DNA of 64,000 nucleotides from Burkholderiales bacterium (GCA_050741255.1 JBOIEQ010000002.1:4782-68781), one strand, 5' to 3'. Positions 19,015 to 58,298 are shown, counted from the stretch's first letter. Translations and numbers: made by a program. The notes: a model not told the origin generated them from the letters alone.

Positions 19015-19262
19015 CCGACTGAGGCCGGTCTACGGGCTCGCGAGTCTTGGCGCGCCGCCTTCCCGCGCAAGCTGGTTGCACAGTGGCTTCGTGGCGCGCC
19101 CGCACTCGCCTACCGTTGCGGGGGCAGCACAGGAATTGGGAGCAGGATTCGGGATACAGGAGTCAGGATCCAGTAAACCCACCACTGAATCCCGCATCCC
19201 GAATCCTGCATCCTGCTTTCCGCACCTGTTTCCCGATTATCCCGGCCGGCGAAACCGGCACG
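19015..19262 (-). promoter_or_regulatory. Cobalamin (B12) riboswitch aptamer in the leader of the TonB-dependent receptor
   Basis: Read on the minus strand: GGGAA-ACAGG-UGCGGAA...CCUGU-GCUGCCCCCGCAACGGUA (plus coordinates 19111-19234). There is also a B12 box, AGCCCGUAGACCGGCC (plus 19023-19038), which fits the consensus rAGYCMGgAgaCCkGCc. Confidence 0.75.
19141..19217. repeat. Tandem-unit hairpin element (unit about 7 nt, NCRGGAT) inside the riboswitch
   Basis: The arms at 19141-19171 and 19187-19217 are imperfect inverted copies. Each is built of four 7-nt units (AGCAGGAT TCGGGAT ACAGGAG TCAGGAT). Confidence 0.7.
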
Positions 19263-19462
19263 GGCACCTCGATCGGGCCCGGTGGAGCATTCCCGCCGGG
19301 CGCGCCGATCATAGCCGATTCGGTTCCATTCGCAGCTTCCTAATAGGCCCTTGATTGCTTGGATAGATCAATCTGAAGCGGGCACTCACACATTTGTTAG
19401 CTTGCGCTCACACCCAAAGCCACACTTGCATGGAAACAACATTCAAAAACGGCCCTTAGCGG

Positions 19463-19492
19463 TTGACTTAACGAGATTTTCACGCCTATAGT
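19463..19492 (+). promoter_or_regulatory. Candidate sigma70 promoter (TTGACT-N18-TATAGT), possibly giving a leaderless transcript
   Basis: TTGACT lies at 19463-19468 and TATAGT at 19487-19492. The ATG of the next ORF is at 19499, only 6 nt after the -10 element, and no SD sequence is visible. Confidence 0.35.
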
Positions 19493-19498
19493 GTACCG

Positions 19499-19714
19499 AT
19501 GGAGGCGGAGCTCAAATCGCTTGAGGGCAAGCTCGACCAGCTGGTCACGCTGTGTCTGCGCTTGCGTGGCGACAACCATGCGTTGCGCCAGCAACTGGCC
19601 AGCGCGCTGAACGACAGCAAGCACCTCGCTGAAACAATCACGCAGGCACGTAACCGTCTTGAAACACTGGTCAGCCAGATCCCGGACGATGAATCGGTCG
19701 GCTCGGCGGGATAA
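19499..19714 (+). CDS. TIGR02449-like coiled-coil protein (ZapB-like, conserved upstream of zapA)
   Basis: 71-aa heptad-rich sequence (LKSLEGKLDQLVTLCLRLRGDNHALRQQL...). Its position directly upstream of zapA matches other proteobacteria. Confidence 0.6.
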   Translation: MEAELKSLEGKLDQLVTLCLRLRGDNHALRQQLASALNDSKHLAETITQARNRLETLVSQIPDDESVGSAG

Positions 19715-19720
19715 GCCCAC

Positions 19721-20035
19721 ATGAGCGCCGAAGGGAAGACGATGCCGGTCAGCATCATGGGCCGCGAGTTCCGCGTGGCCTGCACGGACGAGGAACGACC
19801 GCAGCTCACCGCCGCGGTCGAATACCTGAACGGCAAGATGGAAGAAATCCGGGACCGCAGCAAGGTGAGCGGGCTCGACCGCATCGCCATCATGGCCGCG
19901 CTGAACATCGCGCACGAGTACCTCACCACCCGCGTGGGCGGCTCCGGCGCCGACGTCGCCGACGTCAAGCGCCGGATCTCCGGCATGGAAAGCGCCATCG
20001 ATCAGGCGATGGCCGATCAGGACGAGCTGTTCTAG
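19721..20035 (+). CDS. zapA: Cell division protein ZapA
   Basis: VSIMGREFRVACTDEERPQLTAAVEYLNGKMEEIRDRSKVSGLDRIAIMAALNIAHEYL is the ZapA signature. An alternative start at ATG 19742 has a better RBS. Confidence 0.85.
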   Translation: MSAEGKTMPVSIMGREFRVACTDEERPQLTAAVEYLNGKMEEIRDRSKVSGLDRIAIMAALNIAHEYLTTRVGGSGADVADVKRRISGMESAIDQAMADQDELF

Positions 20036-20077
20036 TCCCCTTCCGCGCAACACAACGTTGTTGCCGCGCATCGCCGT

Positions 20078-20297
20078 TGTTCCCGCAGTTGTCCCTTCCG
20101 CTGTTTGGCTCTAAACTCGTTTGGCCTACTGCGGTGTTCGTCAGGGTCGTAAATTCTTTGAACCAATGACTTGATCCGCGGTTGCCGACCTATGTGGCGC
20201 GGGTGTGCGCTCCTACCTGGAAGCGCCCAAAGCGTCCGGAAGGCGACCTTCTTGACCTGCGGTTCAAGATGCCGGCCTAACGGCATCTGCGGGGGCC
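20078..20297 (+). ncRNA. ssrS: 6S RNA candidate (boundaries approximate)
   Basis: The location immediately downstream of zapA is the conserved synteny. The 5' CCCGCAG pairs with the 3' CUGCGGG, and internal UUGAACC/GGUUCAA and CCGCGGUU segments resemble E. coli 6S. An intrinsic terminator follows. Confidence 0.6.
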
Positions 20298-20310
20298 TCG
20301 ATTCCGGAAC

Positions 20311-20349
20311 GCGGTGGCGCCGCTGACTCTCGCGCGCCACCGCGTTTTT
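20311..20349 (+). terminator. Rho-independent terminator
   Basis: Stem GCGGTGGCGC (20311-20320) pairs with GCGCCACCGC (20334-20343). The loop is 13 nt and a GTTTTT tract follows. Confidence 0.7.
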
Positions 20350-20364
20350 CTTGGTGAGGGCCAC

Positions 20365-20832
20365 ATGCGCTACTGGCTGATGAAGTCCGAACCGGACGCC
20401 TACTCGATCGACGACCTGCAGCGTGACAAGACGACCGCCTGGGTCGGTGTGCGCAACTACCAGGCCCGCAATTTCATGCGCGACCAGATGCAGATCGGCG
20501 ACGGCGTCCTGTATTACCACTCCAGTTGCGAGGAACCGGGCATCGTGGGCATCGCCGCGGTGAGCCGGAAGGCTTATCCCGACGAAACCCAGTTCGACCG
20601 CAAGAGTCCGTACTACGACAAGGCGGCGACCCGGGACAACCCGCGCTGGCTGCATGTCGACGTGAAATTCGTGCGCAAGACACCGCTCGTGTCGCTGGAC
20701 GAGTTGCGCAAGCATCCGGCGCTGAAGAACATGCGCACTCTGCAGCGCGGCAACCGGCTGTCGATCACGCCGGTCGATCCGGCGGAGTGGACCTACCTCA
20801 AAGGCTTGTTGGGGAAAACGGGCGGAAGCTAG
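20365..20832 (+). CDS. EVE domain-containing protein
   Basis: Internal ATG of ORF 20314..20832 with a GAGG RBS. MRYWLMKSEPDAYSIDDL...WVGVRNYQARNFMRD...VLYYHS is the EVE/PUA-like signature. Confidence 0.8.
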   Translation: MRYWLMKSEPDAYSIDDLQRDKTTAWVGVRNYQARNFMRDQMQIGDGVLYYHSSCEEPGIVGIAAVSRKAYPDETQFDRKSPYYDKAATRDNPRWLHVDVKFVRKTPLVSLDELRKHPALKNMRTLQRGNRLSITPVDPAEWTYLKGLLGKTGGS

Positions 20833-21090
20833 AGCCTGTTATGGACCTAAACGGTTGCGGCGGGAGTCGGGGTTCAGTGCTAGGAGCCGCTCGCGCCGCA
20901 GTGCCGGACACTGCAAGCGGGCGGCGACAACGCAATGGACCCCGAATCCCGCGTTCCCTTCGGGTTGAGCCAGAAGCGCCCGTCTGCGTCGTTGCTCGTG
21001 GCAGTGAGGGTCACCGCGGCCTCCTCACGCCTTGCAACCGCGCCCTTTTGGCTCAACGCCGCGCACGTTTAGGTCCATAACAGGCTCTAG
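20829..21090. mobile_element. MITE-like non-autonomous element E1 (262 bp, perfect 25-bp terminal inverted repeats)
   Basis: CTAGAGCCTGTTATGGACCTAAACG at 20829-20853 is the exact reverse complement of 21066-21090. There is no ORF with a recognisable transposase inside. Internal inverted repeats are present. Confidence 0.5.
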
Positions 21091-21578
21091 GGCTGCGGTT
21101 CCTCGGGCGGCAGCGCGAGGGCGGGGGCCAGTGCTTCGGCGCCCTGCGGACTCGGCCGCAGACCGATGCCGACCGTGGGCAACGCCGGCTGCGTCGCGCG
21201 CCACTCGCCCGGAGAAAACTCACCGGCAGTCACCCGCTCCTCGAATCGCAGTGACGGTGCCGACTCCCGGCCTTGCGGCTTGCCGGCCCCGAGGAAGCGC
21301 TGCGTGTTGTAGCCGCCCACCCGCAACCCGTCGAAACCATCGCGGTTGAAATTGAACTCCAGGGAAGGCGGTCGCACCGATGCGGGCGGCGGGCCCAGCG
21401 TGGCCTGCGGGCGCGAATAGCCCAGGGTGAAGCCGAATTGTGCTGGTTCCTGCTCGGCCCCGGTGCCGCCGATCGGGACCCGCAACACCAGCATGGCCGT
21501 CGGTTGCTGCGCGCAGACGGGAAAGCCGGCCGCCGCCAGCGCCGTACCGATGATCCAACGACAAATCGTCCGCTGCAT
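21087..21578 (-). CDS. Hypothetical secreted protein (signal peptide, Pro/Gly-rich)
   Basis: This is the last 163 codons of ORF 21087..22853, starting at ATG 21578 with a GGAGGGA RBS. It has a signal peptide MQRTICRWIIGTALAAAGFPVCAQQ. No family was recognised. Confidence 0.5.
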   Translation of the reverse strand: MQRTICRWIIGTALAAAGFPVCAQQPTAMLVLRVPIGGTGAEQEPAQFGFTLGYSRPQATLGPPPASVRPPSLEFNFNRDGFDGLRVGGYNTQRFLGAGKPQGRESAPSLRFEERVTAGEFSPGEWRATQPALPTVGIGLRPSPQGAEALAPALALPPEEPQP

Positions 21579-21688
21579 GCTCCCTCCTGCAGGTCTTGCC
21601 CACGCGTTGCCGAGGCGAGAAATATTACTCGCGCTGGCTAGACTGGCAAGAGGGTGGCGAAAATTCCCGTAAGTATATGAAATTAAAT

Positions 21689-22912
21689 CTAAATTGCGCC
21701 AGCCTTGCGCAGCTTGTCGCAGTCGGCGGCAGACAGTTCCAGCATCTCCTGCAAGACCGAGTCCGTGTGCTGCCCCAGCACCGGCGGCGGCGTTTCGTGC
21801 GCGATCGGCGTGCCGCTGAAGCGCATGGGACTGCGTACGAGCGGCACCTTGCCCGCGAGCGGGTGCGGCAGCTCGAACTTCAAACCCCGCGCCACCACCT
21901 GCGGCTCGCGGAACACCTGGTCGATCGTGTTGATTGGGCCGTTCGCCACGCCGCCCGCGTCGAGCGCCTCGCACCAGGCCTGCGTCGTGCGCTGCGCGAA
22001 GATTTTTTCGAGCAACGCGGTGATCGCCACGCGGTTTTCGACCCGCTTGCCGTTGGTGGCGAAGCGCGGGTCGGCCGCCAGTTCGCCGCAGCCGGCGATC
22101 TCGCAGAACCTGGCGAACAGGTTGTCGTTGCCGCAGGCGAGGATGATCGCGCCGTCCTGTGTCTTGAACGTCTGGTAGGGCACGATGTTCGGATGCGCGT
22201 TGCCGATACGGCCGGGTGCTTCGCCGGTGGCGAGGTAGTTCATGCCCTGATTGGCGAGGAAGGCCACCTGCGTGTCGAGCAACGCCACATCGATGTAGTT
22301 GCCCTCGCCCGTGCGGGCGCGGTGCGCGAGCGCGGCGCAGATCGCAATCGTCGCGTACATGCCGGTCATCATGTCCACGATCGGCACACCCACGCGCTGC
22401 GGACCGCCCCCGGGCAGGTGATCCTGTTCGCCGGTCACACTCATCAGCCCGCCCATGCCCTGCGCCATGAAGTCGTAGCCGGGACGATCCTTGTACGGCC
22501 CGGTCTGGCCGAAGCCGGTGACCGAGCAGTAAATAAGCCCGGGGTTGTCCTTGCGCAGGTCTTCGTAGCCCAGCCCGTAGCGCGCAAGGTCGCCGACCTT
22601 GTAGTTTTCGATGAGCACATCGCACTTCGCCGCCAGCCGGCGCACCAGCGCCTGGCCCTCCGGTCTGGCGAGGTTGACCGTGACGGACCGCTTGGCGCGG
22701 TTGGCGGCGGCGAAGTACGCGGATTCCGTGGTGTCGCGGCCCTCGGCATCCTTCAACCAGGGCGGACCGAACGCGCGCGAGTCGTCGCCCTTGCCCGGGC
22801 GCTCGACCTTGATGACATCCGCGCCGAGGTCGGCGAGATTCTGCCCGGCCCACGGCCCGGCGAGCACGCGCGAGAGGTCGAGCACGCGGATATGGGATAA
22901 CGGTCCTGCCAT
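21689..22912 (-). CDS. CaiB/BaiF family III CoA-transferase
   Basis: Internal ATG of ORF 21689..22981. LSHIRVLDLSRVLAGPWAGQNLADLGADVIKVERPGKGDDSR is the family signature. Confidence 0.85.
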   Translation of the reverse strand: MAGPLSHIRVLDLSRVLAGPWAGQNLADLGADVIKVERPGKGDDSRAFGPPWLKDAEGRDTTESAYFAAANRAKRSVTVNLARPEGQALVRRLAAKCDVLIENYKVGDLARYGLGYEDLRKDNPGLIYCSVTGFGQTGPYKDRPGYDFMAQGMGGLMSVTGEQDHLPGGGPQRVGVPIVDMMTGMYATIAICAALAHRARTGEGNYIDVALLDTQVAFLANQGMNYLATGEAPGRIGNAHPNIVPYQTFKTQDGAIILACGNDNLFARFCEIAGCGELAADPRFATNGKRVENRVAITALLEKIFAQRTTQAWCEALDAGGVANGPINTIDQVFREPQVVARGLKFELPHPLAGKVPLVRSPMRFSGTPIAHETPPPVLGQHTDSVLQEMLELSAADCDKLRKAGAI

Positions 22913-22934
22913 GTTCACTCCATCATCAGGTTGG

Positions 22935-23006
22935 CCGCCAAGACGCCAAGAGCGCCAAGGAAATGCGTAACGCCAGTGCACTCACGACCTCTTGGCGCCT
23001 TGGCGG
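22935..23006. repeat. Tandem-unit hairpin element (8-nt unit CGCCAAGA)
   Basis: The left arm CCGCCAAGACGCCAAGAGCGCCAAGG (22935-22960) pairs with the right arm CCTCTTGGCGCCTTGGCGG (22988-23006). It lies in the intergenic region between the hydratase and CoA-transferase genes. Confidence 0.65.
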
Positions 23007-23011
23007 AAAAT

Positions 23012-23797
23012 TTATCGGCCCGTGAACTTCGGTTTCTTCTTTTGCATGAACGCATCGTAGCCGATGCGGTAATCCTCCGTGTCGAAGTAGTCGAAATTCG
23101 CCTCGACTTCCGCCGCCGTCAGCAACGCCGCCCGCGGCGTCAGACGGCGGATGAACTGCTTGTGCCAGCGATGCACCAGCGGTGCGCCGTCGGCGATGCG
23201 TGCCGCCGTGGCGCGCACTTCCGCGGCCAGCGCGCCGTCGTCCACGAGCCGCGTGAGCAGGCCTTTGGCCAGCGCTTCCTCCGCGTCCCACACGCGGCCC
23301 TCGAGCAGGATCTCCGCCGCAACCGCCGGGCCGGCGAGCGCCAGCAGCCCCGCCAGTTCGTCGTAGGCGATCGCGAAACCCAGCCGATTGATCGGCACGC
23401 CGAAGCGTGCCGAGCGCCCGGCGATGCGCAGGTCGCACTGGCAGGCGAGTTCCAGCCCGCCGCCCACACAGGGCCCGTGGATCATCGCCACCACCGGATG
23501 CCGGCATTCGCCAACCGCCCGGAGCGCGCCGCCCACCAGCGCCCCGTGATAGTGCCGCCCCTGATCCCGGTCGTTGCGCTCGGTGGCGAACTCCGCGATG
23601 TCCGCGCCGGCCGCAAACGCCGCGTCACCCGCCCCGCGCAGGATGACGCAGCGCAGGCCATCGTCCGCCGACAGCGCGCGCACCGCCTCCGCCAGCGCGC
23701 GCCACATGGCGACGGTCAGCGCGTTGAGCTTGCCGGGATTGGCGATGGCGACGGTGGCGATGACGCCGTCGCGGGTGACGTCGATGGTGCCGGGCAT
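23012..23797 (-). CDS. Enoyl-CoA hydratase/isomerase family protein
   Basis: Internal ATG of ORF 23012..23899. Crotonase motifs VILRGAGDAAFAAGADIAEF and GPCVGGGLELACQCDLRIA. It is a paralog of 47915..48703. Confidence 0.85.
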   Translation of the reverse strand: MPGTIDVTRDGVIATVAIANPGKLNALTVAMWRALAEAVRALSADDGLRCVILRGAGDAAFAAGADIAEFATERNDRDQGRHYHGALVGGALRAVGECRHPVVAMIHGPCVGGGLELACQCDLRIAGRSARFGVPINRLGFAIAYDELAGLLALAGPAVAAEILLEGRVWDAEEALAKGLLTRLVDDGALAAEVRATAARIADGAPLVHRWHKQFIRRLTPRAALLTAAEVEANFDYFDTEDYRIGYDAFMQKKKPKFTGR

Positions 23798-23913
23798 GGG
23801 GGAAGCGGGGAAAAGCCGGATGATACGCGCTGGGCAATGCGCCATAATCACGGCGACGCCCTGGCAGCGGCATGCGGATAGGCCGGGCACCGATAACAAG
23901 GAGGAGAACCATC

Positions 23914-24900
23914 GTGAATCGCACCCCCGCCGTGCTGGCCGCGTTCCTGGCCTCGGCTCCCGTCGCCCTGCCCGCGGCCGCCCAGAACGCCGCCGCGACC
24001 TACCCGAACAAGTCCATCCGCTTCGTGGTGCCCTATCCGCCCGGCGGGACCACCGACATCGTCGCGCGCGGCATCGGCATGAAGCTTGCCGAGCGCTTCG
24101 GCCAGCAGGTAGTCATCGACAACCGCGGCGGCGCCAGCACCATCATCGGCGCGGACGCGGTCGCCAAGTCCCTGCCGGACGGCTACACGCTGCTGCTGAC
24201 CACCGCCACCACGATGTCGATCAATCCGCAGGTCGTGCCCAAGCTGCCGTACGACGCGGCAAAGGATTTCGCGCCGATCACCTTCGCGGTCAACGTGCCC
24301 TTCATGATCGCCGCCCATCCGTCGTTGCCGGTCAACACTATGCCCGAGCTGATCGCGCTGGCGAAGGCCAAGCCCGGCACGATCAAGTACTCGTCGCCCG
24401 GCACGGCCTCCAGCAACCACGTTGCCGGGGCACTCCTCGAGTCCATGGCGGGCATCAAGCTGCTGCACATCCCCTACAAGGGCTCGGGGCCCGCGACGAC
24501 GGCGGCGCTCGGCGGCGAGGTGGACTTCGTCATCACCGGTATCGCCACCGCCGCGCCCCACGGGAGGGCGGGCAAGCTGAAGCTTCTCGCCATCGGCGCC
24601 GACCAGCGTCACCCGGGCTGGCCCGACGTTCCTTCCACTGGCGAAGCCGGGCTCAAGGGTTACTACGCGGGCACGTGGTTCGGCGTGGTCACGCGCGCGG
24701 GAACGCCGCGGGCGATCATCGACAAGCTCAACCGGGAATCGGTGGCGGCGCTCTCCGCAGGCGAGTTGAAAGACCGCCTGACCGCGATCGGCTTTGACGT
24801 GGCCCCCGGCACCCCCGAGGAGTTCGCGAGCTTCATGCAGGTCGACATGGCGCGGGCGGCCAAGGTCATCAAGGCGGCCGGCATCCAGGCCGCCGAGTAG
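23914..24900 (+). CDS. Bug family (TctC-like) tripartite tricarboxylate transporter substrate-binding protein
   Basis: GTG start 23914 with AAGGAGGA upstream. It has a signal peptide followed by YPNKSIRFVVPYPPGGTTD, the hallmark Bug N-terminus. Confidence 0.85.
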   Translation: MNRTPAVLAAFLASAPVALPAAAQNAAATYPNKSIRFVVPYPPGGTTDIVARGIGMKLAERFGQQVVIDNRGGASTIIGADAVAKSLPDGYTLLLTTATTMSINPQVVPKLPYDAAKDFAPITFAVNVPFMIAAHPSLPVNTMPELIALAKAKPGTIKYSSPGTASSNHVAGALLESMAGIKLLHIPYKGSGPATTAALGGEVDFVITGIATAAPHGRAGKLKLLAIGADQRHPGWPDVPSTGEAGLKGYYAGTWFGVVTRAGTPRAIIDKLNRESVAALSAGELKDRLTAIGFDVAPGTPEEFASFMQVDMARAAKVIKAAGIQAAE

Positions 24901-24913
24901 GTCGTGCAGACGA

Positions 24914-27295: not shown

Positions 27296-27296
27296 G

Positions 27297-28103
27297 TCAG
27301 TCCCTCCGCGCGGCGCTGATCCCGCCGTCGACCGTCAGCTCGGTTCCGGTGATGTAGGCCGCCTCGTCCGAGACCAGGAACAGCACGGCGTGCGCCGTGT
27401 CCCAGCCGGTGCCCATGCGTCCCATCGGCACCGCCGCGTGGCGCTTGGCGATCAGTTCCGCCGCACTGCCGGCGGACAGCTGTTTGACCAGGCGCTGCTC
27501 CACCAATGGCGTGTGCATGGTGCCCACCACCACCGTGTTGCAGCGGATGCCCTTCTTCACATACGCCATGGCCGTCGAGCGGCTGAAGGCCGCTAGCCCG
27601 GCCTTCGCGGTGCTGTAGGCCACGTTGACCCGGCCGCCGACCTGGCTGCGAAAGCCCGCGATGGAAGAAATGTTCACGATGACGCCCGCCTGCTGCTTCT
27701 CCATCACCGGCAGCACGAACTTGCAGCCCATGAACGCCGTCTTGAGGTTGAAGTCGAGCTGGCGGTCCCAGACTTCCTCCGTCATCGATACCGGATCGCC
27801 CGCCGCGGAACCGCCCACGTTGTTGACGAGGATGTCGACGCGCCCGAAACGGGCGGTGCAGGCCTCGACGGCCGCCTTCACTTCCGCCGCCTTCGTCATG
27901 TCGCAGCGGTGGACGACGCAGACGCCGCCTTCCTTCTCGATGATGTCGCGGGTTTCCAGCGCCGCCGCCTCGTCGAGGTCCGTAGCGAACACCGTCGCGC
28001 CCTGGCGCGCCAGCAGCACGGCGGTGGCCTTGCCGTTGCCCCAGCCGGGGCCCACGGTGCCGGCGCCGGCAACGAATGCGATCTTGCCCTTGAGATCAAG
28101 CAT
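27297..28103 (-). CDS. SDR family oxidoreductase
   Basis: Internal ATG of ORF 27297..28334. GKIAFVAGAGTVGPGWG, NNVG, NISSIAG and YSTAKAG (canonical Ser/Tyr/Lys). Confidence 0.85.
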   Translation of the reverse strand: MLDLKGKIAFVAGAGTVGPGWGNGKATAVLLARQGATVFATDLDEAAALETRDIIEKEGGVCVVHRCDMTKAAEVKAAVEACTARFGRVDILVNNVGGSAAGDPVSMTEEVWDRQLDFNLKTAFMGCKFVLPVMEKQQAGVIVNISSIAGFRSQVGGRVNVAYSTAKAGLAAFSRSTAMAYVKKGIRCNTVVVGTMHTPLVEQRLVKQLSAGSAAELIAKRHAAVPMGRMGTGWDTAHAVLFLVSDEAAYITGTELTVDGGISAARRD

Positions 28104-32949: not shown

Positions 32950-33032
32950 GGTAATGGGTAATGGGTAATGGGTAATGGGAACAACCCCGGCGCCGGTGCT
33001 TACTCATCACCCATGACTCATTACTCATCACC
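32950..33032. repeat. Tandem-unit hairpin element (7-nt unit GTAATGG x4)
   Basis: The left arm at 32951-32978 is four exact GTAATGG units. The right arm at 33000-33032 is the imperfect complement (GGTGATG AGTAATG AGTCATG GGTGATG when reverse-complemented). It lies between two permease genes. Confidence 0.75.
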
Positions 33033-33990: not shown

Positions 33991-34063
33991 CGTGAGGCGT
34001 CAGGCGTGAAGCGTGAGGGGTAACGGTCTGGATCGCCTCACCCCTCCCGCCTCACTCCTCACC
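33991..34063. repeat. Tandem-unit hairpin element (7-nt unit CGTGAGG)
   Basis: The left arm is CGTGAGG CGTCAGG CGTGAAG CGTGAGG (33991-34018). The right arm at 34034-34063 reverse-complements to GGTGAGG AGTGAGG CGGGAGG GGTGAGG. It lies between the SBP and permease genes. Confidence 0.75.
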
Positions 34064-40820: not shown

Positions 40821-41085
40821 AGAGCGCCTAACAGCGTGAAACGCACGTGCGCTGTCACGGGTTTGGCTCAGGGCGAGGCATCTGCCACCGGCCGTATGGG
40901 GTATACGGTCAAGGCAGATAACGACGCCATGGGCCAAACTCGTGCCAGCCCGGAGGGTTACGGCCAGAATCGCCGCTCACTTTGTCGCCCTCCGGGGGCC
41001 GTATTGACATACGCCCCCCATCGGGCTTCGCGTGCCCGACAATTCTGGCCGTAACGCACGCGCGTTTCACACTGTTAGGTGCTCT
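40821..41085. mobile_element. MITE-like element E2 (265 bp, 24-bp terminal inverted repeats with 2 mismatches)
   Basis: AGAGCGCCTAACAGCGTGAAACGC (40821-40844) matches the reverse complement of 41062-41085 (AGAGCACCTAACAGTGTGAAACGC). Nested internal inverted repeats include 40957-40970 against 41042-41055. Its size and AGAGC...AAACG termini resemble E1. Confidence 0.45.
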
Positions 41086-44419: not shown

Positions 44420-44896
44420 ATGAGTACCGACGCCCTTACACATCTGACCTACATGCAGCGCGCGCTGGACCTCGCGCGCAAGTCCATGGACTCGGGCAAC
44501 CGGCCGGTTGCCTCCCTCATCGTCCGCGACGGCGAGGTCATCGGCAGCGGCGTCAACACCATGCTGAGCGACCACGATCCGAGCGCGCACGCCGAGGTCG
44601 CCGCCATCCGCGAGGCCGGCGCGAAGCTGAAGACCATCGACCTCTCCGGCAGCACGCTGTATTCCACGCTCGAATGCTGTCCCATGTGCTTCTGGTGCAT
44701 GCAGGAAGCGAAGATCACCCGGGTCGTGCTGGGCGGCCGCTATGCCGGCATCGGGCGCACCGACCTGGGCCGCTACACGGTGGAGTCCTTCCGCGAATTC
44801 ACCGGCCGCCCGCTGGAGATCATCACCGGCGTGCTGCAGACCGAATGCGAGGCCGTTCGCCTGGAATGGATGCGGAAGGAAAGCAAAAACAAATGA
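44420..44896 (+). CDS. Nucleoside/nucleotide deaminase (CDA fold, TadA/guanine deaminase-like)
   Basis: This is the last 158 codons of ORF 43481..44896. Zinc motifs HAEVAAI and LECCPMC (HAE...PCxxC). Confidence 0.8.
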   Translation: MSTDALTHLTYMQRALDLARKSMDSGNRPVASLIVRDGEVIGSGVNTMLSDHDPSAHAEVAAIREAGAKLKTIDLSGSTLYSTLECCPMCFWCMQEAKITRVVLGGRYAGIGRTDLGRYTVESFREFTGRPLEIITGVLQTECEAVRLEWMRKESKNK

Positions 44897-44983
44897 ACCA
44901 CAGAGGCACAGAGGCACAGAGGACGGCAAGGAAAACGAACTTCGAATCGGGGTTTTCTCCGTGTCTCTGTGCCTCTGTGGTTC
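44895..44983. repeat. Tandem-unit hairpin element (8-nt unit CACAGAGG), same subfamily as 58160-58298
   Basis: The left arm is GAACCACAGAGGCACAGAGGCACAGAGGACGG (44895-44926). The right arm is TTCTCCGTGTCTCTGTGCCTCTGTGGTTC (44955-44983). It overlaps the TGA of the deaminase gene. Confidence 0.8.
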
Positions 44984-48703: not shown

Positions 48704-48707
48704 GCGC

Positions 48708-49508
48708 ATGTCCGGGCTTTGCAGACGGTGTTGCGGCGTGGCGTTGCTGCTCCTCGCGCTGCCATTGTATGCGCAGGGCGATACCGAACTCGAACGGCGC
48801 AGCGCGGAGGACATCCGGCAGACTGTTATCGTCGGCGAACCGCTGTCGCTGCAACGGCCCGCCGGCGGGCCTTTCTTCGCCATCCTTACACCCGCGGCCG
48901 AAGTCCGCGGCGCACCCGCGGCCGAAGTCCGCGGCGCGCCGGCCGCCAAACCGCGCGGCGGTGTCGTGCTGGTGCACGGCCTGGGCGCGCATCCGGACTG
49001 GGGACTCATCAGCACGCTGCGCACCCAGTTGCCGGCGGCCGGCTACACCACCCTGTCCATACAGATGCCGCTGCTGCCGGAAAACAGCCGGCCGGAGGAT
49101 TACGCGGCGGTGTTCCCCGACGCGGTCACGCGCCTGCGTGCAGCGGTCGCCTTCCTGCGCGCATCCGGACTGGAGAAGGTGGCGGTCGTTTCCTACGACC
49201 TGGGCGGACGCATGGTGAACCACTTCCTCGTGCGCGAAGCACAGCCGGGCGTCAACGCCTGGGCGTCCATCGCCATCTCCGGCGGCGTATTCACCGACGC
49301 TGCCAGGTTGCGCCTGCCGGTGCTGGACCTGTACGCGGAACGCGACTATCCGCCGCTCGTGCAGAACGCCGAGAAGCGCGCGGGCGACATCCGGCTGCTG
49401 CGCGGATCCGCGCAGGTCGAAGTCGCGGGCGCCAATCATCTGTTCGATGGCCGCGAGGCGCAGATGGTGGGCCACGTGCGGACCTGGCTCGACCGCGTCT
49501 TCCGGTAA
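48708..49508 (+). CDS. Alpha/beta hydrolase-like secreted protein (DUF3530-like)
   Basis: Internal ATG of ORF 48432..49508. It has a signal peptide and VVLVHGLGAHPDWGLISTLRTQLPAAGYTTLSIQMP. Confidence 0.6.
   Translation: MSGLCRRCCGVALLLLALPLYAQGDTELERRSAEDIRQTVIVGEPLSLQRPAGGPFFAILTPAAEVRGAPAAEVRGAPAAKPRGGVVLVHGLGAHPDWGLISTLRTQLPAAGYTTLSIQMPLLPENSRPEDYAAVFPDAVTRLRAAVAFLRASGLEKVAVVSYDLGGRMVNHFLVREAQPGVNAWASIAISGGVFTDAARLRLPVLDLYAERDYPPLVQNAEKRAGDIRLLRGSAQVEVAGANHLFDGREAQMVGHVRTWLDRVFR
48891..48938 (+). repeat. In-frame 24-nt tandem duplication (PAAEVRGA x2)
   Basis: CCCGCGGCCGAAGTCCGCGGCGCA is followed directly by CCCGCGGCCGAAGTCCGCGGCGCG. Confidence 0.9.
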
Positions 49509-49595
49509 GCCCGCGCAGCAGGTGCCTGCCGTCCGCGCACGCACCAGCCGTTACAATTGCGGTCTTTTCGCACCCGGTTCAGCCAGGAGAAGACC

Positions 49596-51922: not shown

Positions 51923-51941
51923 CCCTCCGGAGCATCAAGCC

Positions 51942-52535
51942 TTGAAGAAAAGCGTCATCTACTTCCATTCCCTGTCCTCGCCCTGGGCCTATCTGGGCTG
52001 GCCGCGCTTTCAGGCGCTGATCAAAAAACACGATCTCGACGTGGTGGTGCGTCCCACGCGCATCGTTCAACCCAACGGCGGCATTCCGCTGCGCAGCCGG
52101 CCCGATGCGCGCCAGCGTTATCACGAGGTGGAACTCGACCGCTGGCGCAAGCGCCTCAACATGCCGCTCGTGCTGCGGCCCAAGCACTACCCGACGCAAA
52201 ACGAATTCTCCGCACGCATGGTGATCGCCGCCGACAAGCTCGGCTGGGACGCGCTGGCGCTGAGCCACGCACTGCTGTACGCGCTGTGGAGCGAGGAACT
52301 GGACGTCAAGGACGCGAACGTGCGCGTGGCTGTCGCAAACAAGCTCGGCCTCGATGGCGCGAAACTGCTCGCGATGCAGGACACGCCCGAGATGATGGAC
52401 GCCTGGCGCGCGAGCGAGCAGGAAGCGGAGTCGTACGGCGTCTTCGGCACGCCAACCTGGGTGTTCAACAAGACGCTGTTCTGGGGCCAGGACCGGCTGG
52501 AGTTTCTGGACGAGGCGCTGAGCGCCGCGAAGTAG
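51942..52535 (+). CDS. 2-hydroxychromene-2-carboxylate isomerase / DsbA-like thioredoxin-fold protein
   Basis: A TTG start at 51942 is proposed because the ATG at 51852 would overlap the PrpD gene by 70 nt. YFHSLSSPWAYLG is the N-terminal motif of the HCCA isomerase family. Confidence 0.65.
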   Translation: MKKSVIYFHSLSSPWAYLGWPRFQALIKKHDLDVVVRPTRIVQPNGGIPLRSRPDARQRYHEVELDRWRKRLNMPLVLRPKHYPTQNEFSARMVIAADKLGWDALALSHALLYALWSEELDVKDANVRVAVANKLGLDGAKLLAMQDTPEMMDAWRASEQEAESYGVFGTPTWVFNKTLFWGQDRLEFLDEALSAAK

Positions 52536-52615
52536 GCGCCGCGCCGCCCGCAAAAGTTCTTGTTAAGCCTACTGAATCTATTGCATATTCACGGACGCAG
52601 AATGAGGAACTCCTG

Positions 52616-53599
52616 GTGACCAGCAAATTGTCGATTGAGATGCTCCTGCTCGGGGCATCGTTAGTGGCGAGCGGCGCGGCGCACGCGCAGCAACCGTACC
52701 CTAACCGGCCCATCCGCCTGGTCGTGCCGTTCGCGACCGGCGGCGGTACCGATATCTCGGGACGCACGATCGCCAGCAAGCTGTCCGAGCGACTGAATCA
52801 GAACGTCGTCGTCGACAATCGCGCGGGCGCCGGCGGCAACCTCGGCATCGAACTCGTCGCCAAGGCCGCGCCCGACGGCTACACGCTGCTGATCGTGTCG
52901 AGCGGCTATGCCGCCAATCCGAGCCTTTACAAACTGTCGTACGACCCGGTGACCGGCTTCGAGCCCATCACGCAGGTGAGCCAGCAGCCGTTCCTGGTCG
53001 TGACGAATGCCAAGGTGCCGATCAAGACGATCAAGGAACTGATCGCGTACGCCAAGGCGAATCCCGGCAAGCTCAATTACTCGTCGGCGGGCGTGGGCGG
53101 TAGCCAGCATCTCGCGGTGGAGTTGTTCAAGGGCATGGCCGGTGTCGATATCGTGCACGTCCCCTACAAGGGCGGCGCGTCGAACATGGTCGACCTGCTG
53201 TCCAACCAGGTGCAGCTCGATTTCGGCACCATCATCTCGACCCTGCCCATGGTCAGGAACGGCCAGCTGCGGCCGCTCGCGGTCACCACCACGGTGCGCG
53301 CAACCGCGCTGCCCGAGGTGCCGACGGTCTCGGAGTCCGGTGTCCCGGGCTATTCCGTCAGCGGCTGGAACGCGATCCTCGCGCCGGCAAAGACGCCGCG
53401 CGACATCGTTGTACTCCTCAACCGCGAGATCGTGGCGCTGCTGCAGGCGCCGGACGTCAGGGAGCGTTACGCGACGGACGGCAGCATGATCGTGGCCGGC
53501 ACGCCGCAGCAACTGGCCGAGCATATCCGGGTGGAGGTTGCGAAGTGGGCCAAGCTCATCCAGGAACGCAACATCAAGCTTGAAACCGCGAGCCGCTGA
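52616..53599 (+). CDS. Bug family (TctC-like) substrate-binding protein
   Basis: GTG start 52616 with GAGGA 7 nt upstream. Signal peptide followed by YPNRPIRLVVPFATGGGTD. Confidence 0.8.
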   Translation: MTSKLSIEMLLLGASLVASGAAHAQQPYPNRPIRLVVPFATGGGTDISGRTIASKLSERLNQNVVVDNRAGAGGNLGIELVAKAAPDGYTLLIVSSGYAANPSLYKLSYDPVTGFEPITQVSQQPFLVVTNAKVPIKTIKELIAYAKANPGKLNYSSAGVGGSQHLAVELFKGMAGVDIVHVPYKGGASNMVDLLSNQVQLDFGTIISTLPMVRNGQLRPLAVTTTVRATALPEVPTVSESGVPGYSVSGWNAILAPAKTPRDIVVLLNREIVALLQAPDVRERYATDGSMIVAGTPQQLAEHIRVEVAKWAKLIQERNIKLETASR

Positions 53600-53650
53600 G
53601 CGCCCGCGGGCGAATTGCCGGATCGACAGAAAACCAGACAGGGAGAGGGA

Positions 53651-54652
53651 ATGAAGCTGTGCAGTTATGAAATCCAGGGACTGACGCGAGTCGGGGTGAT
53701 ACTCGACAAGGATCGCCTGGCCGATGCCACCATCGCTTGCGCCGCATACCTGCATGTCCAGGGAGAAACCAAGGCCTACGCGCTGGCGGATGTACTGACG
53801 CCCCCCTCCATGCTGGCGATCATCGAAGGCGGTGCTTCTTCCCTGGATGCGCTGCGCAAGGCCGAGCAATATGCAAAAGCCAACCCGCAGGCCTCGGGTC
53901 CGCGCGGGGAAAAGCTCTTTCACGCGATCAAGGAGGTGCGGCTGAAAGCACCTGTACCCCGGCCACCGAAAATCCTCGGCCCGAACTGGAATTCGAAGGA
54001 AGACCAGGCGCGGATCATCCGGCCGCCCGGCGAACCGCATCCTTTCTATGCGATCAAGCTGAGTACCGCGGTCACCGGACCCTTCGACCCGATCGAGATT
54101 CCGGACATCGGTGGCGTCATCTCCGAGGTGGAAGCGGCGTTGATCATCGGGAAAAAAGGCAAGAACATCCCCGAGAACAAGGCGGCGGAGTACATCTTCG
54201 GCTACACGGTGGCCAACGATCTGACCGCCCTCGACATGCGGGACAAGCAGGAATGGGTGCTGGTGAAGTCCCCCACCGGCGGCGAACAGATCCGGATTTC
54301 CTCGGCCGCCCGCTACAAGTGTCTCGACACCTTCTGTCCCATGGGACCCTGGCTGGTGACGGCGGATGAAATCGACATCCATAACTGCCGCATGGACGCC
54401 CGCGTCGACGGCGAACTCGACCAGACGGGAACGACCGCGGACATGGTCTTCAACTTCTTCCAGCTGATCGCCTACTTCTCCAAGGCGCACACGCTCGAGC
54501 CCGGTGACGTGATCCTCAGCGCCACCACGCCTCTCGCGCCGGAAAGAAAGAAAGCCAAGCTCGGAAAAATCGATATCAACAACGGCAAGAAAGTGCTGGA
54601 GTCGGAAATCGAGGGAATCGGCGTGATCCGCAACCCGATCAAGCGCGTATGA
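53651..54652 (+). CDS. Fumarylacetoacetate hydrolase (FAH) family protein
   Basis: Internal ATG of ORF 53615..54652. EVEAALIIGKKGKNI, GYTVANDLTA and GDVILSATT are FAH-fold motifs. Confidence 0.8.
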   Translation: MKLCSYEIQGLTRVGVILDKDRLADATIACAAYLHVQGETKAYALADVLTPPSMLAIIEGGASSLDALRKAEQYAKANPQASGPRGEKLFHAIKEVRLKAPVPRPPKILGPNWNSKEDQARIIRPPGEPHPFYAIKLSTAVTGPFDPIEIPDIGGVISEVEAALIIGKKGKNIPENKAAEYIFGYTVANDLTALDMRDKQEWVLVKSPTGGEQIRISSAARYKCLDTFCPMGPWLVTADEIDIHNCRMDARVDGELDQTGTTADMVFNFFQLIAYFSKAHTLEPGDVILSATTPLAPERKKAKLGKIDINNGKKVLESEIEGIGVIRNPIKRV

Positions 54653-54699
54653 CACCGGGCGGCGGCCGGTTCTCGGTTTCGAAGCGCTGACTGGTCGGC

Positions 54700-55272
54700 T
54701 TAGCCCGCGTCCGACACAGTCTCCCGCACCTCCCGCGCCCACCGCCACACCAGAAACCCCAGCGCCCCCGCGATTACGATCCACGCGATTACACGCAACG
54801 CGTTCGCGAGCGTGATGTCTTGGTTGAGCAGTCCCCAACGCAGCAGGATCGTGTTCCAGTCATGCTGGGGATCCTTGCCGAAGCCCGCGAGCGGCAGCAC
54901 CCGCGCGCGCGCATCCGCCATATAGATCGCCACGCTCAGCAGGCTCTGTCCCAGCCAGATGCTGCTGAGCCCGTACGACATCGTCCAGCGGCGACGCCAG
55001 AACTCGAACATGCAGATCAGCGGAAAGACGATCTGCGCGAACGTACCGCCGTAGACGGCCAGACGATTGCTGAACATACCGACGAGGGGATGTCCCGCTT
55101 CGTGCACGGCGAAGTTGGCGTCGTCCACCAGCGGCACCCAGCCGCCGGCGAAAAACGCGCGATACGCGATGAAGCCCGCGAACGCGAAAGCAAAGATCAG
55201 CCCGCCCGTCGGCACCGGATTCCACGGCCGCGTATTGGTCCAGGCGATGTCGTCTGCGATGCGCATGAACAC
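54700..55272 (-). CDS. Hypothetical polytopic membrane protein with HExxH motif
   Basis: 190 aa with about 5 hydrophobic helices. HEAGH sits at the start of a helix. No family was recognised. Confidence 0.5.
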   Translation of the reverse strand: MFMRIADDIAWTNTRPWNPVPTGGLIFAFAFAGFIAYRAFFAGGWVPLVDDANFAVHEAGHPLVGMFSNRLAVYGGTFAQIVFPLICMFEFWRRRWTMSYGLSSIWLGQSLLSVAIYMADARARVLPLAGFGKDPQHDWNTILLRWGLLNQDITLANALRVIAWIVIAGALGFLVWRWAREVRETVSDAG

Positions 55273-55390
55273 GGTCAGCCGCTTCCTACAGGGTAAACGC
55301 CGGGACCCCGACAGGCCGCCGACAGCGCGCTCTCCAGAATGCAGGCATCAGGCGGGCAATGGTAACCCGTCCTTTTGAAGGGGTCCGACC

Positions 55391-55546
55391 ATGATCTCCA
55401 CCATCCTGCTGGTTGTGCTGGTTCTGCTGCTGATCGGGGCGTTGCCGACGTGGTCGTACAGCGGCTCCTGGGGCTACTACCCGAGCGGCGGGCTGGGCCT
55501 GCTGGTGCTCATCCTGCTAATCCTGCTGCTCACTGGGCGCATTTAG
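55391..55546 (+). CDS. DUF3309 family small membrane protein (51 aa, not in the supplied ORF track)
   Basis: ATG 55391 to TAG 55544-55546 encodes MISTILLVVLVLLLIGALPTWSYSGSWGYYPSGGLGLLVLILLILLLTGRI. This matches the DUF3309 pattern (LGALP.W..S..WGY.PSGGLG). An AAGGGG RBS is present. Confidence 0.7.
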   Translation: MISTILLVVLVLLLIGALPTWSYSGSWGYYPSGGLGLLVLILLILLLTGRI

Positions 55547-55555
55547 GGGAGCCGC

Positions 55556-56131
55556 ATGAACAACACCACGGCCATCATCATCGCCGGGCGTTTCGATGCG
55601 CAGAAGAGCGCGGACGAGGCGATCCACCAGTTGCTGCACGTCGGCTTCCCCGCGGACCGGTTTACGAGCTTCTTCGTCAATCCGCCGGGGCATCACGACC
55701 GGTTTCCCATCGGCGGTGACCGCGACGAATCACCCGGCGCCAAGGGCGCCGATGGCGGCGCCGCGAAAGGCGCGGCCATCGGCGGCGCGATCGGTCTTGG
55801 CGTCGGTCTTGCGGCCACGCCGCTGGCCGGGCCGGCGGCAGCCGTGGGCGGCGCAGGCGTAGGCGCCTACGTAGGCTCGCTCGTGGGCGCGCTCAATCAG
55901 CTGGGCGGCGAGGAGGGCGAGCGCGTGCGTGTGCGCGAAAGCGGCGTACTGGTGGCCGTGCAGACCCGCAGCGCGGATGACGAACGTCTGGTCATCGACC
56001 TCCTCCAGCGCGCGGGCGCGCATGAAATCGAGCGCGCGCAAGGCCGGTGGGAAGCCGGCAAATGGGCGGATTTCGACGCCTTACGGCCGCCCATACTGGT
56101 GAAGAGCGTCGACGTCCGCTCGGCGGCATAA
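55556..56131 (+). CDS. Hypothetical protein with central glycine-zipper segment (general-stress-like)
   Basis: 191 aa. Two similar alpha/beta modules flank GAAIGGAIGLGVGLAATPLAGPAAAVGGAGVGAYVGSLVGAL. A GGGGA RBS lies directly after the DUF3309 stop. Confidence 0.5.
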   Translation: MNNTTAIIIAGRFDAQKSADEAIHQLLHVGFPADRFTSFFVNPPGHHDRFPIGGDRDESPGAKGADGGAAKGAAIGGAIGLGVGLAATPLAGPAAAVGGAGVGAYVGSLVGALNQLGGEEGERVRVRESGVLVAVQTRSADDERLVIDLLQRAGAHEIERAQGRWEAGKWADFDALRPPILVKSVDVRSAA

Positions 56132-56140
56132 AACCTTCGG

Positions 56141-57109
56141 CTAGCGCTCGTTCGCGCTCGTTGCAGCGCGCTTGAGACGGTCCCGTACCGCTGCCCACTC
56201 CGGCGTCTGTGGCAGTGCCTCCACCAGGATCACGTCGCGGCCTGCGGCATCGAGCGCGCGCAGGTTCGCATAGAGAGCGTGCGCATAGCCCGCGGCGTCC
56301 TGCGGCGCTGTGATCCAGGCATCACTTGAACCGGGCGGTTGCGCTGCGGTGTGCGCGAGGACCGCGACTTGCTTGCCCTGCCGGGAAAGGCTTGTGGCCA
56401 GTTCCAGCATCAGGTCCGCTGCCATCAACATGAGCGGCGTCGCCGGCGCGTAGTGCGACGCCAGCGTGCCGGAAGCGCGCGGCGCGTCCGAACCTCCGAT
56501 GCCCACCGGAATGCCCAGTACCTCTTCGATCATCGCCGGCGTAATCGCCCCGGGCCTCAGCACGCGGGGCCCTGCGCCCGTGAGATCCACGATCGTCGAT
56601 TCGATACCGACTTCCGGCAATTCTCCATCCAGCACCACGTCCACCGCATCGCCCAGGTCACGGCGCACGTCGTCCGCCCGCGTGGCGCTGACGCGGCCGA
56701 ACTTGTTGGCGGAAGGTGCCGCGATGCCGCCGCCGAACGCCGCGAGCAGCGCGTGCGCCACCGGATGCGCGGGCACCCGCAAGCCGACGCTGTCCTGCCC
56801 GCCGGTGACGAGGCCGGTGACCTGCGGCTGTTTTTTCAGGATGAGCGTCAGCGGGCCGGGCCAGAACTTCGCTGCCAGCGTATACGCGGGTGCGGGAATG
56901 TCGCGCGCCCAGAGCGGCATCTGCACCACGTCGGCGACGTGTACGATCACTGGATGGTCGGCCGGCCGGCCCTTCGCGGCGTAGAGGCGGCGGATGGCGT
57001 CGGGATTCGCAGCATCGCAGCCGAGGCCATAGACCGTCTCGGTGGGAAACGCGACGAGGCGGCCCTGGCGGAGGGCGGCTACCGCTTTTTCGATCTCCAA
57101 GGCATTCAT
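56141..57109 (-). CDS. tsaC: L-threonylcarbamoyladenylate synthase (Sua5/YwlC/TsaC type, with C-terminal Sua5 domain)
   Basis: GRLVAFPTETVYGLGCDA, KGRPADHPVIVHV, PGPLTLIL and SANKFGRVSAT. Confidence 0.85.
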   Translation of the reverse strand: MNALEIEKAVAALRQGRLVAFPTETVYGLGCDAANPDAIRRLYAAKGRPADHPVIVHVADVVQMPLWARDIPAPAYTLAAKFWPGPLTLILKKQPQVTGLVTGGQDSVGLRVPAHPVAHALLAAFGGGIAAPSANKFGRVSATRADDVRRDLGDAVDVVLDGELPEVGIESTIVDLTGAGPRVLRPGAITPAMIEEVLGIPVGIGGSDAPRASGTLASHYAPATPLMLMAADLMLELATSLSRQGKQVAVLAHTAAQPPGSSDAWITAPQDAAGYAHALYANLRALDAAGRDVILVEALPQTPEWAAVRDRLKRAATSANER

Positions 57110-57116
57110 TCGAAGT

Positions 57117-57239
57117 TAGCCGCAGAGACGCAGAGAGCGCAGAGAAAGCGGAATGACGGCAAAAAAAGAGGTCTTTCCGAATAAATCGCCGTTATTGCTT
57201 GTTCGCGTTTCCTCTGCGTTCTCTGCGTCTCTGCGGCTA
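57117..57239. repeat. Tandem-unit hairpin element (8-nt unit CGCAGAGA)
   Basis: The left arm TAGCCGCAGAGACGCAGAGAGCGCAGAGAAAG (57117-57148) pairs with the right arm at 57208-57239, whose reverse complement is TAGCCGCAGAGACGCAGAGAACGCAGAGGAAA. It fills the purC-tsaC spacer. Confidence 0.8.
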
Positions 57240-57247
57240 TTGTCGAT

Positions 57248-58141
57248 TTAGTTGCCTGTGAGCATGTGCAAAGCCTCCTGGTACTTCTCGGAGGTCTTCG
57301 CCAGGATATCCGGCGGCAGCGCCGGCGCGGGATGTTTCTTGTTCCACGGCTGCGTTTCCAGCCAGTCGCGCACGAACTGCTTGTCGAAGGACGGCGGCGA
57401 GATGCCCGTGCGGTACTGGTCTTTCGGCCAGAAGCGCGATGAATCCGGCGTCAGCGCCTCGTCGATCAGGTACAGCTTGCCCGCCGCGTCCACGCCGAAT
57501 TCGAACTTGGTGTCGGCGATGATCACGCCTCGCGTTTCCGCGTAGGCGGCAGCCTCGGTGTAAAGCTTGATCGCGATGTCGCGCACCTGCGCGGCATAGG
57601 CGGCGCCGATCGTCTCTTCCACCACGGCATAGGAAATATTCTCGTCGTGTTCGCCGGCCGGCGCCTTGGACGCGGCGGTGAAGATCGGCTGGTCGAGTTT
57701 CTGTGCCTGCTGGAGCCCCGCCGGCAGCTTGATGCCACAAATCTCGCCGGTGGCCTGGTAATCCTTCCACCCCGAACCCGCGACATAGCCGCGCACCACC
57801 GCTTCCACCAGCAGGGGCTTGAACTTGTGCACGACCATCGCGCGACCGGCGACCTGCTCGCGTTCGGCGGCGCCGCTCACCACCGACTCCGGCGCGACGC
57901 CGGTCAGGTGGTTGGGGCCGAGGTGCTGCAGTTTCTCGAACCAGAAATTCGACAGCGTGGTGAGCACGCGGCCCTTGCCCGGGATCGGCGTCGGCAGGAT
58001 GACGTCGAAGGCGGACAGGCGGTCGGTCTGGATGACGAGCAGCTTGTCATCGCCCACGGCGTAGAGATCGCGCACCTTGCCGCGATGCAGGAAGGGCAGG
58101 CTCTTGAGGCTGGATTCGAAGAGGGAGACGGGAGTGTTCAT
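57248..58141 (-). CDS. purC: Phosphoribosylaminoimidazole-succinocarboxamide synthase
   Basis: Internal ATG of ORF 57248..58174. [29 protein letters not shown] and [10 protein letters not shown] are SAICAR synthetase motifs. Confidence 0.9.
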
Positions 58142-58159
58142 ATAGTGATGGGAACGGTT

Positions 58160-58298
58160 GAACCACAGAGGCACAGAGTCACGGAGAACGGCAAACGCCG
58201 GTCACCTTCAGAGACAAGGGGAATGCGCTACGCGCAGATGGCGCTTGGTTCCATTTCGGGCGGATGGTTTTCTCCGTGCCTCTGTGCCTCTGTGGTTC
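58160..58298. repeat. Tandem-unit hairpin element (8-nt unit CACAGAGG), same subfamily as 44895-44983
   Basis: The left arm GAACCACAGAGGCACAGAGTCACGGAGAA (58160-58188) pairs with the right arm at 58270-58298, with 1 mismatch. The loop is 81 nt. It fills the purK-purC spacer. Confidence 0.8.

Follow-up and report, generated by a model that had tools for sequence, protein, structure and literature searches.

Short extragenic repeats are common in bacteria, and a mechanism is known only for the repetitive extragenic palindromic (REP) sequences with their REP-associated tyrosine transposase (RAYT). Here we analyze seven intergenic hairpins, with arms built of tandem 7- or 8-nt units, found in 64,000 nucleotides of DNA from a Burkholderiales bacterium (GCA_050741255.1 JBOIEQ010000002.1:4782-68781; this whole stretch is referred to as the window) and reported in a preliminary description of that sequence. 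The REP sequences and bacterial interspersed mosaic elements (BIME) carry a GTAG or CGTC tag at one end of a 20- to 40-bp imperfect palindrome (PMC3733652), and in the REP doublets known as REPINs, two inverted REPs around a spacer form the replicating unit, with the RAYT acting as transposase (PMC3733652, PMC3116915). One example of tandem-unit arrays is presented by the GGGAATC heptamers of Xanthomonas, of unknown function, usually with about four units per array, which are found at 70-75 per genome in close pairs, always convergent, with the G-rich arm first on both strands; about 90% of these are intergenic, at a mean of 28 nt from the upstream open reading frame (ORF) and mostly between co-directional ORFs, and they are transcribed, with length varying between species and the site being kept (Rehm et al., 2015; PMC4692102). 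Another example is the short tandemly repeated repetitive (STRR) sequences of cyanobacteria, tandem units of 7 bp that lie between genes and come in several types in each genome (Mazel et al., 1990, as summarized in PMC4692102), hairpins of which lie between the co-transcribed hupS and hupL, where their function is unknown and transcript stability or translational coupling has been proposed (PMC2670836). The window elements fit the STRR/Xanthomonas kind by design, position and polarity, and thus belong to a class with precedent. New here are the octamer families, the many families in one Burkholderiales genome, their recurrence across phyla, nesting, insertion into a riboswitch, and core switching at orthologous sites.

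The seven elements (E1 to E7) and the riboswitch that hosts the first of them are as follows, with positions counted from the first nucleotide of the window.

19141 to 19217, minus strand: E1, a heptamer hairpin with arms at 19141-19174 and 19184-19217 and a unit approximating GGGATKC/CAGGATK
22935 to 23006, minus strand: E2, an octamer hairpin with unit CGCCAAGA
32950 to 33032, minus strand: E3, a heptamer hairpin with a left arm (plus strand) that is a perfect fourfold GGTAATG array
33991 to 34063, minus strand: E4, a heptamer hairpin with unit GTGAGGC
44895 to 44983, plus strand: E5, an octamer hairpin with unit CACAGAGG and termini GAACC/GGTTC
57117 to 57239, minus strand: E6, an octamer hairpin with unit CGCAGAGA and termini GCCGC/GCGGC
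58160 to 58298, minus strand: E7, an octamer hairpin with unit CACAGAGG and termini GAACC/GGTTC
19006 to 19286, minus strand: a cobalamin riboswitch (RF00174, 92 bits), host of E1, 5' of a TonB-dependent receptor gene (16935-18923)

The seven loci are one architectural class and not a product of chance, and the coordinates, the units and the shared plan of tandem-unit arm, spacer and inverted copy given in the preliminary description are all correct. Arrays of period 7 or 8 detected by Tandem Repeats Finder (TRF) are almost confined to these loci, where they occur as oppositely oriented pairs, and TRF arrays with periods divisible by three are found in coding regions. The four longest inverted repeats of the window are E7, E6, E5, and E1, with E4 within the top 25, and alternative pairing registers are seen among the window inverted repeats (repeat pairs I4/I6, I1/I10, and I3/I15). 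Each element folds as RNA into one long hairpin, with z scores of -6.15 (E1), -5.41 (E2), -4.0 (E3), -4.16 (E4), -9.17 (E5), -9.56 (E6), and -7.41 (E7), and none of 200 shuffles folded as well. A detector defined as a TRF array with a reverse-complement partner no more than 220 nt away returned exactly the seven loci from the window, relaxed thresholds included, and a single element from 30 dinucleotide shuffles of it (about 0.03 per window by chance). The G/purine-rich arm comes first in all seven elements, and elsewhere in 42 versus 7 cases, among 51 elements not chosen by the search pattern. This polarity had been described as a property of the plus strand, and that part does not stand, as either strand of an inverted repeat begins with the same arm and arm order is thus uninformative about strand.

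As first described, all seven elements are intergenic, one of them in a leader RNA, and six belong to minus-strand transcription units and one to a plus-strand unit. Six are placed between co-directional genes and start 2-12 nt past the upstream stop codon, E5 overlapping its stop, and the distance from the element end to the next start codon is 6-51 nt. E2 separates the genes of an enoyl-CoA hydratase (stop 23012) and a family III CoA-transferase (start 22912), and E3 those of the oppB-like and oppC-like permeases, while E4 occupies the whole spacer from a solute-binding-protein gene (stop 34066) to the oppB-like gene (start 33984). The stem of E5 shares 2 nt with the TGA stop (44894-44896) of a deaminase gene; E6 is flanked by purC (stop 57248) and a sua5/tsaC-like gene (start 57109), and E7 by purK (stop 58313) and purC (start 58141). 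In the cobalamin riboswitch, E1 is located in the terminal loop of one stem, where the Rfam consensus reads GGUGC on one side and AAUUCC on the other, and due to this hairpin the riboswitch measures 281 nt versus 189 nt in the model. Mechanically called ORF starts (GTG/TTG) at 22981, 32984, and 58174 fall within E2, E3, and E7, respectively; the true starts are placed downstream of the elements based on homolog lengths and in-frame ATGs, that of purC at 58141 (homologs of 295-298 aa) and that of the CoA-transferase gene at 22912.

The unit sequence had been considered specific to each locus, and in this respect the preliminary description was mistaken. The units fall into multi-copy families, each with an arm consensus of about 30 nt and fixed termini, and these are common to loci, genomes, and phyla. 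Examples of such families are GAACC-(CACAGAGG)n...GGTTC and GCCGC-(AGAGACGC)n...GCGGC. E5 and E7 have in common not only the unit CACAGAGG and the GAACC/GGTTC termini but also an inner stem, GAGAAAACC/GGTTTTCTC; one arm of E2 matches, over about 30 of 31 positions, an element in the purC-sua5 spacer of a relative (L088); and in relatives (L082/L216) a second CGCAGAGA copy is present at another locus (L082 3673-3734). The CGCAGAGA, CGCCAAGA, and CACAGAGG families are built alike, with a unit of 8 nt followed by one of 9 nt and a third that runs into A-rich sequence. The arm consensus of the CACAGAGG family is NNAC-CACAGAGG-CACAGAGG-(A)CACRGAGR-AAA, with conservation ending at the arm ends. An exact 16-mer of this family, CACAGAGGCACAGAGG, occurs in at least 120 metagenome contigs of 36-71% G+C. 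About two-fifths of the CACAGAGGCACAGAGG arrays among the matches listed have a CCTCTGTG partner by the detector, the remaining ones being in part at contig ends and in part apparently single, and the same contigs carry other units (CACGAAGG, CGCAAAGG, CACCAAGG, GACGATA, GGAATGC, GGGAACA, and ATAAGGC).

A BLAST search of plasmids led to plasmid 1 of Gemmatirosa kalamazoonensis (Gemmatimonadota, 72-74% G+C), which carries a GAACC-(CRCAGAGGA)n...GGTTC family, as in E5. Its first 300 kb contain about 33 elements of at least 10 unit families, each multi-copy (detector matches inspected), with loop lengths that are family-specific and, for an 11-mer family (family D), with a conserved loop and an outer inverted repeat. 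Nesting is observed here in concentric form, CGCGGAGAA outside CCGCAGAGG outside CACAGAGGA, and elements also nest in one another's loops. Arrays of CACAGAGG are further present on Anabaena and Sphaerospermopsis plasmids. The density in Gemmatirosa, about one element per 9 kb, is equal to that in the window (seven per 64 kb), while only two true cases were found in 1.38 Mb from 80 other Beta- and Gammaproteobacteria, a gap exceeding 50-fold among lineages with similar G+C. As this survey covered 80 CTI-gene loci with almost no elements, it yielded no orthologous comparison. The median distance from the stop codon is about 16 nt (29 co-directional cases), and convergent spacers are enriched in Gemmatirosa, holding 11 of 29 intergenic elements versus being 29 of 169 spacers (crude gene calls).

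Orthologous spacers, the comparison of which had been suggested in the preliminary description, do vary in the presence of elements. One metagenome-assembled genome (MAG) contig, GCA_975255875.1, is 99.8% identical to the window with differences only near one contig end, and being from the same population it revealed no polymorphism. Elements are present in some of the other relatives, and spacers are empty in L209, L210, L212, L088, and L218. The purC-sua5 spacer, for which PurC identity to the window is given, is the most extensively represented.

Window: CGCAGAGA (E6)
L082 (93%): CGCAGAGA
L088 (93%): CGCCAAGA, with junctions GCCGC...GCGGCTAAC as in the window
L211 (81%): CGCRAAGG
L209 (88%): empty, 29 nt
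L210 (85%): empty, 36 nt
L212 (80%): empty, 8 nt

Between the window and L082 the arms are identical at 27 of 31 and 27 of 32 positions and the loops cannot be aligned. In the purK-purC spacer, L082 has CGCRGAGR units with GGAACC/GGTTC ends, as in the window, decayed to a z score of -0.35, and L088 is empty (61 nt). In the spacer between the enoyl-CoA hydratase and CoA-transferase genes, where the window has CGCCAAGA (E2), L216 carries CGCAGAGA units plus a single CGCAAAGA unit, its loop being unalignable, and L218 is empty (39 nt). Both E3 and E4 have orthologs in two relatives at 94% identity (L216 and L217), whose loops can be aligned and which differ by ordinary point substitutions; in L216 the 3' arm of E4 is one unit shorter, and an arm of E3 has been homogenized into a perfect fourfold array in the window only, and therefore mismatches with its other arm. 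L218 retains a decayed E4, shows blocks of variant units, and is empty at the E3 site (12 nt); next to this E4 ortholog, at about 9690-10000, it has an insertion of about 300 nt with terminal inverted repeats AGAGTGCCTAACATGATGAAAC and GTTTCATTATGTTAGGCACTCT that looks like an unrelated MITE (miniature inverted-repeat transposable element). At the E1 site, the riboswitches of L219 and L220 (receptor identities of 89% and 78%) contain a hairpin of nearly the same length, made of related heptamers. Orthologous elements thus persist at 78-94% protein identity, and element-free spacers in more distant relatives measure 8-60 nt. These data show that elements have been gained in short spacers and are then long-lived (through 6-22% protein divergence), and that they change in place, by gain or loss of units, homogenization of one arm, point decay, and, in the octamer families, replacement of core and loop together, the core switches at orthologous sites being from CAGAG to CCAAG and from CAC to CGC. 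Single units resembling seeds or scars in empty spacers (CCGCTTGGCG in L209 and CTGCGCC in L218) are suggestive but expected by chance at this G+C, and are not relied on.

Compared with the Xanthomonas pairs, the window elements are likewise close convergent arrays that lie between genes and nearer the upstream ORF, and the units of E1 fit (GGGANTN)n. However, the other six lack G-runs and thus do not conform to a GGGAATC/(GGGANTN)n unit with the potential for a G-quadruplex (G4). While the Xanthomonas study dealt with one unit type, chosen for its G4 potential, the window has at least six types in 64 kb, mostly octamers without G-runs (octamers make up E2, E5, E6, and E7, and heptamers E1, E3, and E4), and nesting, cross-phylum families, and core switching are not described in that study. 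With STRR, all seven loci have in common intergenic head-to-tail arrays of 7-8 nt in several unit types (by TRF). Unlike STRR, known from filamentous (heterocystous) cyanobacteria and mostly single heptamer arrays, they are paired arrays in Burkholderiales-like DNA of 67% G+C, with TctC/Bug-family receptor genes and Burkholderiales MAGs as closest relatives. Drosophila Foldback transposons have long inverted terminal repeats of short tandem units around a variable middle, but they are eukaryotic, kilobase-scale, and transposase-linked, and the analogy is one of design only.

In agreement with the preliminary description, the elements fit none of the REP/BIME, enterobacterial repetitive intergenic consensus (ERIC), and Correia elements. 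They do resemble REP, BIME, and REPIN, with their hundreds of copies, in being short extragenic hairpins at gene 3' ends and in operons, without target duplication, in being mosaic or nested, and, as in the REPIN, in having two inverted repeats around a spacer. However, neither GTAG/CTAC nor CGTC/GACG occurs at the element ends, among the seven termini with 10-nt flanks; and the one consensus per genome of REP/BIME is replaced here by at least six unit types in 64 kb and by the 10 or more families of the Gemmatirosa plasmid. Unlike in REPINs, each arm is a direct tandem array and no palindrome, a loop is common to one pair among 72, and no Y1/HUH domain of a cognate RAYT was found in the window ORFs scanned. 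Unlike MITEs with their target-site duplications, the arms are flanked by inverted complements (GAACC/GGTTC, TCACC/GGTGA), not direct repeats. Intrinsic terminators were considered and rejected, as none of the elements is followed by a T-run on the transcribed strand; a terminator scan listed none, with a loop limit of 3-8 nt that would miss them. Against Rfam, no element matched at gathering or E-value thresholds, only the cobalamin riboswitch and a 6S RNA passing in the window; sub-threshold matches to the plant miRNA precursors MIR1507 (57113-57244) and MIR6462 (44895-44983) are artifacts of long hairpins. A literature search found no paper with the arm sequences, and a search by concept found only the reports on Xanthomonas, on Beggiatoaceae TAACTGA, and on STRR, none treating all as one class.

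We place somewhat better than even confidence in the elements being REP/REPIN-like hairpin repeats, selfish or near-neutral and of multiple families, residing at gene 3' ends and loop tips. Each copy consists of two inverted arrays of a 7- to 11-nt G/purine-rich unit around a variable loop, and would spread in a REP/REPIN-like manner through a mobilizing activity encoded elsewhere in the genome or through gene conversion among copies; being tandem arrays, the arms evolve by slippage as well. Copies would survive only where a self-contained stem-loop is harmless, such as at gene 3' ends or loop tips, and their 25- to 35-bp stems in operon mRNAs could stop 3' exonucleases or draw RNase III, as with REP/BIME, an effect that is probably secondary and not what maintains the elements. 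The mobile repeat class suggested in the preliminary description is best supported by the multi-copy families, the conserved termini, the empty orthologous spacers, and a duplication of a whole element in L180, where homology extends exactly from ACCACAGAGG to CCTCTGTGGT at 90% identity, with unrelated flanks; an RNA stability or processing role, offered there as an alternative, is uncertain. Several observations weigh against the mobile reading. There is no target-site duplication at the L180 pair or elsewhere among the elements, and no conserved tag such as GTAG; a scan of about 45 window ORFs revealed no transposase, RAYT, reverse transcriptase, or HUH domain, consistent with the earlier statement that the window has no mobilizing gene; and, among 72 loops of at least 25 nt, only the L180 elements match each other over most of the loop, a scarcity that is unlike young MITE or REPIN families. 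Templated resynthesis or concerted evolution could likewise produce the orthologous core switches, with no need for mobility. Neither the G/purine-rich-arm-first rule, nor the coordinated nature of these switches, nor the presence of one family in several phyla is accounted for by a REP/REPIN-like model. Insertion into pre-existing hairpins holds for E1 and for the nested copies, but as a general rule it fails at the empty E2 and E3 sites of L218.

Some of these features would be explained by a rather improbable alternative, a cross-phylum superfamily of mobile DNA generated by a polar templated process undescribed in bacteria. In one version, a short template copied reiteratively would first yield the G-rich array and fold-back the complementary arm, and the resulting hairpin, a single-strand intermediate, would then insert at gene ends and existing hairpin tips. 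Such a process would explain the universal 5' position of the G-rich arm on both strands, the change of core in all units of both arms at once, the unique loops, and the concentric nesting. A telomere-like healing of a central break is disfavored, as inverted complementarity extends to a few bases on either flank of the arrays. Purely local birth and upkeep, in which replication slippage builds the arrays and template switching or fold-back synthesis at a stalled fork makes and corrects the inverted arm, without any movement, is in our view unlikely, even though the unit-number differences between orthologs, the E3 arm homogenized to a perfect fourfold array with the other arm not so, the blocks of variant units in L218, the alternative pairing registers, the unique loops, and the single arrays common among CACAGAGGCACAGAGG contigs are all as expected from it, and polymerase slippage has been given as the cause of the excess of heptanucleotide simple sequence repeats (SSRs) known in cyanobacteria, Burkholderia, and Xanthomonas (Mrazek, 2007, referred to in PMC4692102 and PMC4679880). 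Evidence against it is given by the recurrence of the arm consensus, the 8/9-nt unit spacing, and the termini at unrelated loci, genomes, and phyla, by the L180 duplication, which includes the loop, by the family-specific loops and outer inverted repeats of Gemmatirosa family D, and by the difference in density between lineages of similar G+C.

It is also doubtful that the elements are selected as RNA, i.e., as intercistronic or 3'-end stem-loops that serve mRNA stability, as RNase III sites, as terminators independent of a U-tract, or in translation coupling, with families reflecting a common trans-acting binder. The very stable folds of all seven, their start 2-12 nt past stop codons, and the lack of a visible Shine-Dalgarno sequence between element and start codon in four of six downstream genes are consistent with such a role, as are the G·U pairs of the window (25 sense versus 14 antisense), the constant length of E1 in three riboswitch orthologs with six compensatory pairs, the conservation of arms next to unalignable loops in L082, the enrichment in convergent spacers of Gemmatirosa, the transcription of the Xanthomonas arrays (PMC4692102), and the stabilizing or coupling role proposed for the hupS-hupL hairpin (PMC2670836). 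However, strand bias is not general, with 98 sense versus 78 antisense G·U pairs and the sense strand folding better in 15 versus 14 of the 29 co-directional cases, and the ortholog trios of E3 and E4 show 11 pair-breaking and 10 wobble changes and only two compensatory ones, so that selection for an RNA helix is weakly supported. Furthermore, the purK-purC ortholog in L082 has decayed, the same housekeeping spacers are short and element-free in relatives, and a U-tract is missing past each of the seven. A function at the level of DNA, as G4 structures on the G-rich arrays, which have been proposed for Xanthomonas, or as arrays of sites for a DNA-binding protein, is very improbable. GGGAATC-type arrays form G4 in vitro (PMC4692102), E1 units are (GGGANTN)-like, and 7- to 9-bp periodic units in inverted arrays look like multimeric binding sites, but the four G-runs required for G4 are missing from most families (CACAGAGG, CGCAGAGA, CGCCAAGA, and GGTAATG), the G4 reading was rejected for all window elements but E1, and at least six units in one 64-kb window would demand many binders.

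Other parts of the window have features of their own. Its gene content includes, along with TctC/Bug-family receptors, an opp-like ABC operon, purE-purK-purC-sua5, and a fatty-acid cis/trans isomerase. Positions 1-16800 are a polysaccharide/O-antigen-type cluster of tight or overlapping genes (Polysacc_synt_2, Wzy_C, heptosyltransferase, DegT aminotransferase, MBOAT, methyltransferases, and an ABC exporter) without a hairpin element. The 6S RNA gene (20123-20299, plus strand, 57 bits) adjoins an EVE-domain gene, and this neighborhood, with zapA and zapB, is also found in L218 and L219. An imperfect 24-nt inverted repeat, 83% complementary and without tandem units (40957-40980 and 41032-41055), may be an operator, being located in the spacer of two divergent genes, one FAD-oxidase-like and one for a class-V aminotransferase. 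At 48889-48937, a 24-nt sequence (CACCCGCGGCCGAAGTCCGCGGCG) occurs twice as a perfect direct repeat, and a small ORF at 55391-55546 (plus strand) encodes a DUF3309-like hydrophobic peptide, its 9-nt TRF arrays being coding repeats unrelated to the hairpins.

Overall, one design with many unit families is represented in Burkholderiales, Gemmatimonadota, cyanobacteria, Xanthomonas, and many soil metagenome contigs, and its elements are found within housekeeping operons (purK-purC-tsaC and the opp-like operon) and in a riboswitch. For annotation, it matters that they distort gene-start calls and pass for small RNAs or miRNA precursors when structure is scanned, and, evolving fast, they could be of use as strain markers in genotyping. 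The strict polarity and the core switches involving all units at once point to a mechanism yet to be found, and the scattered reports on STRR, GGGAATC arrays, and heptamer SSRs may have one cause.

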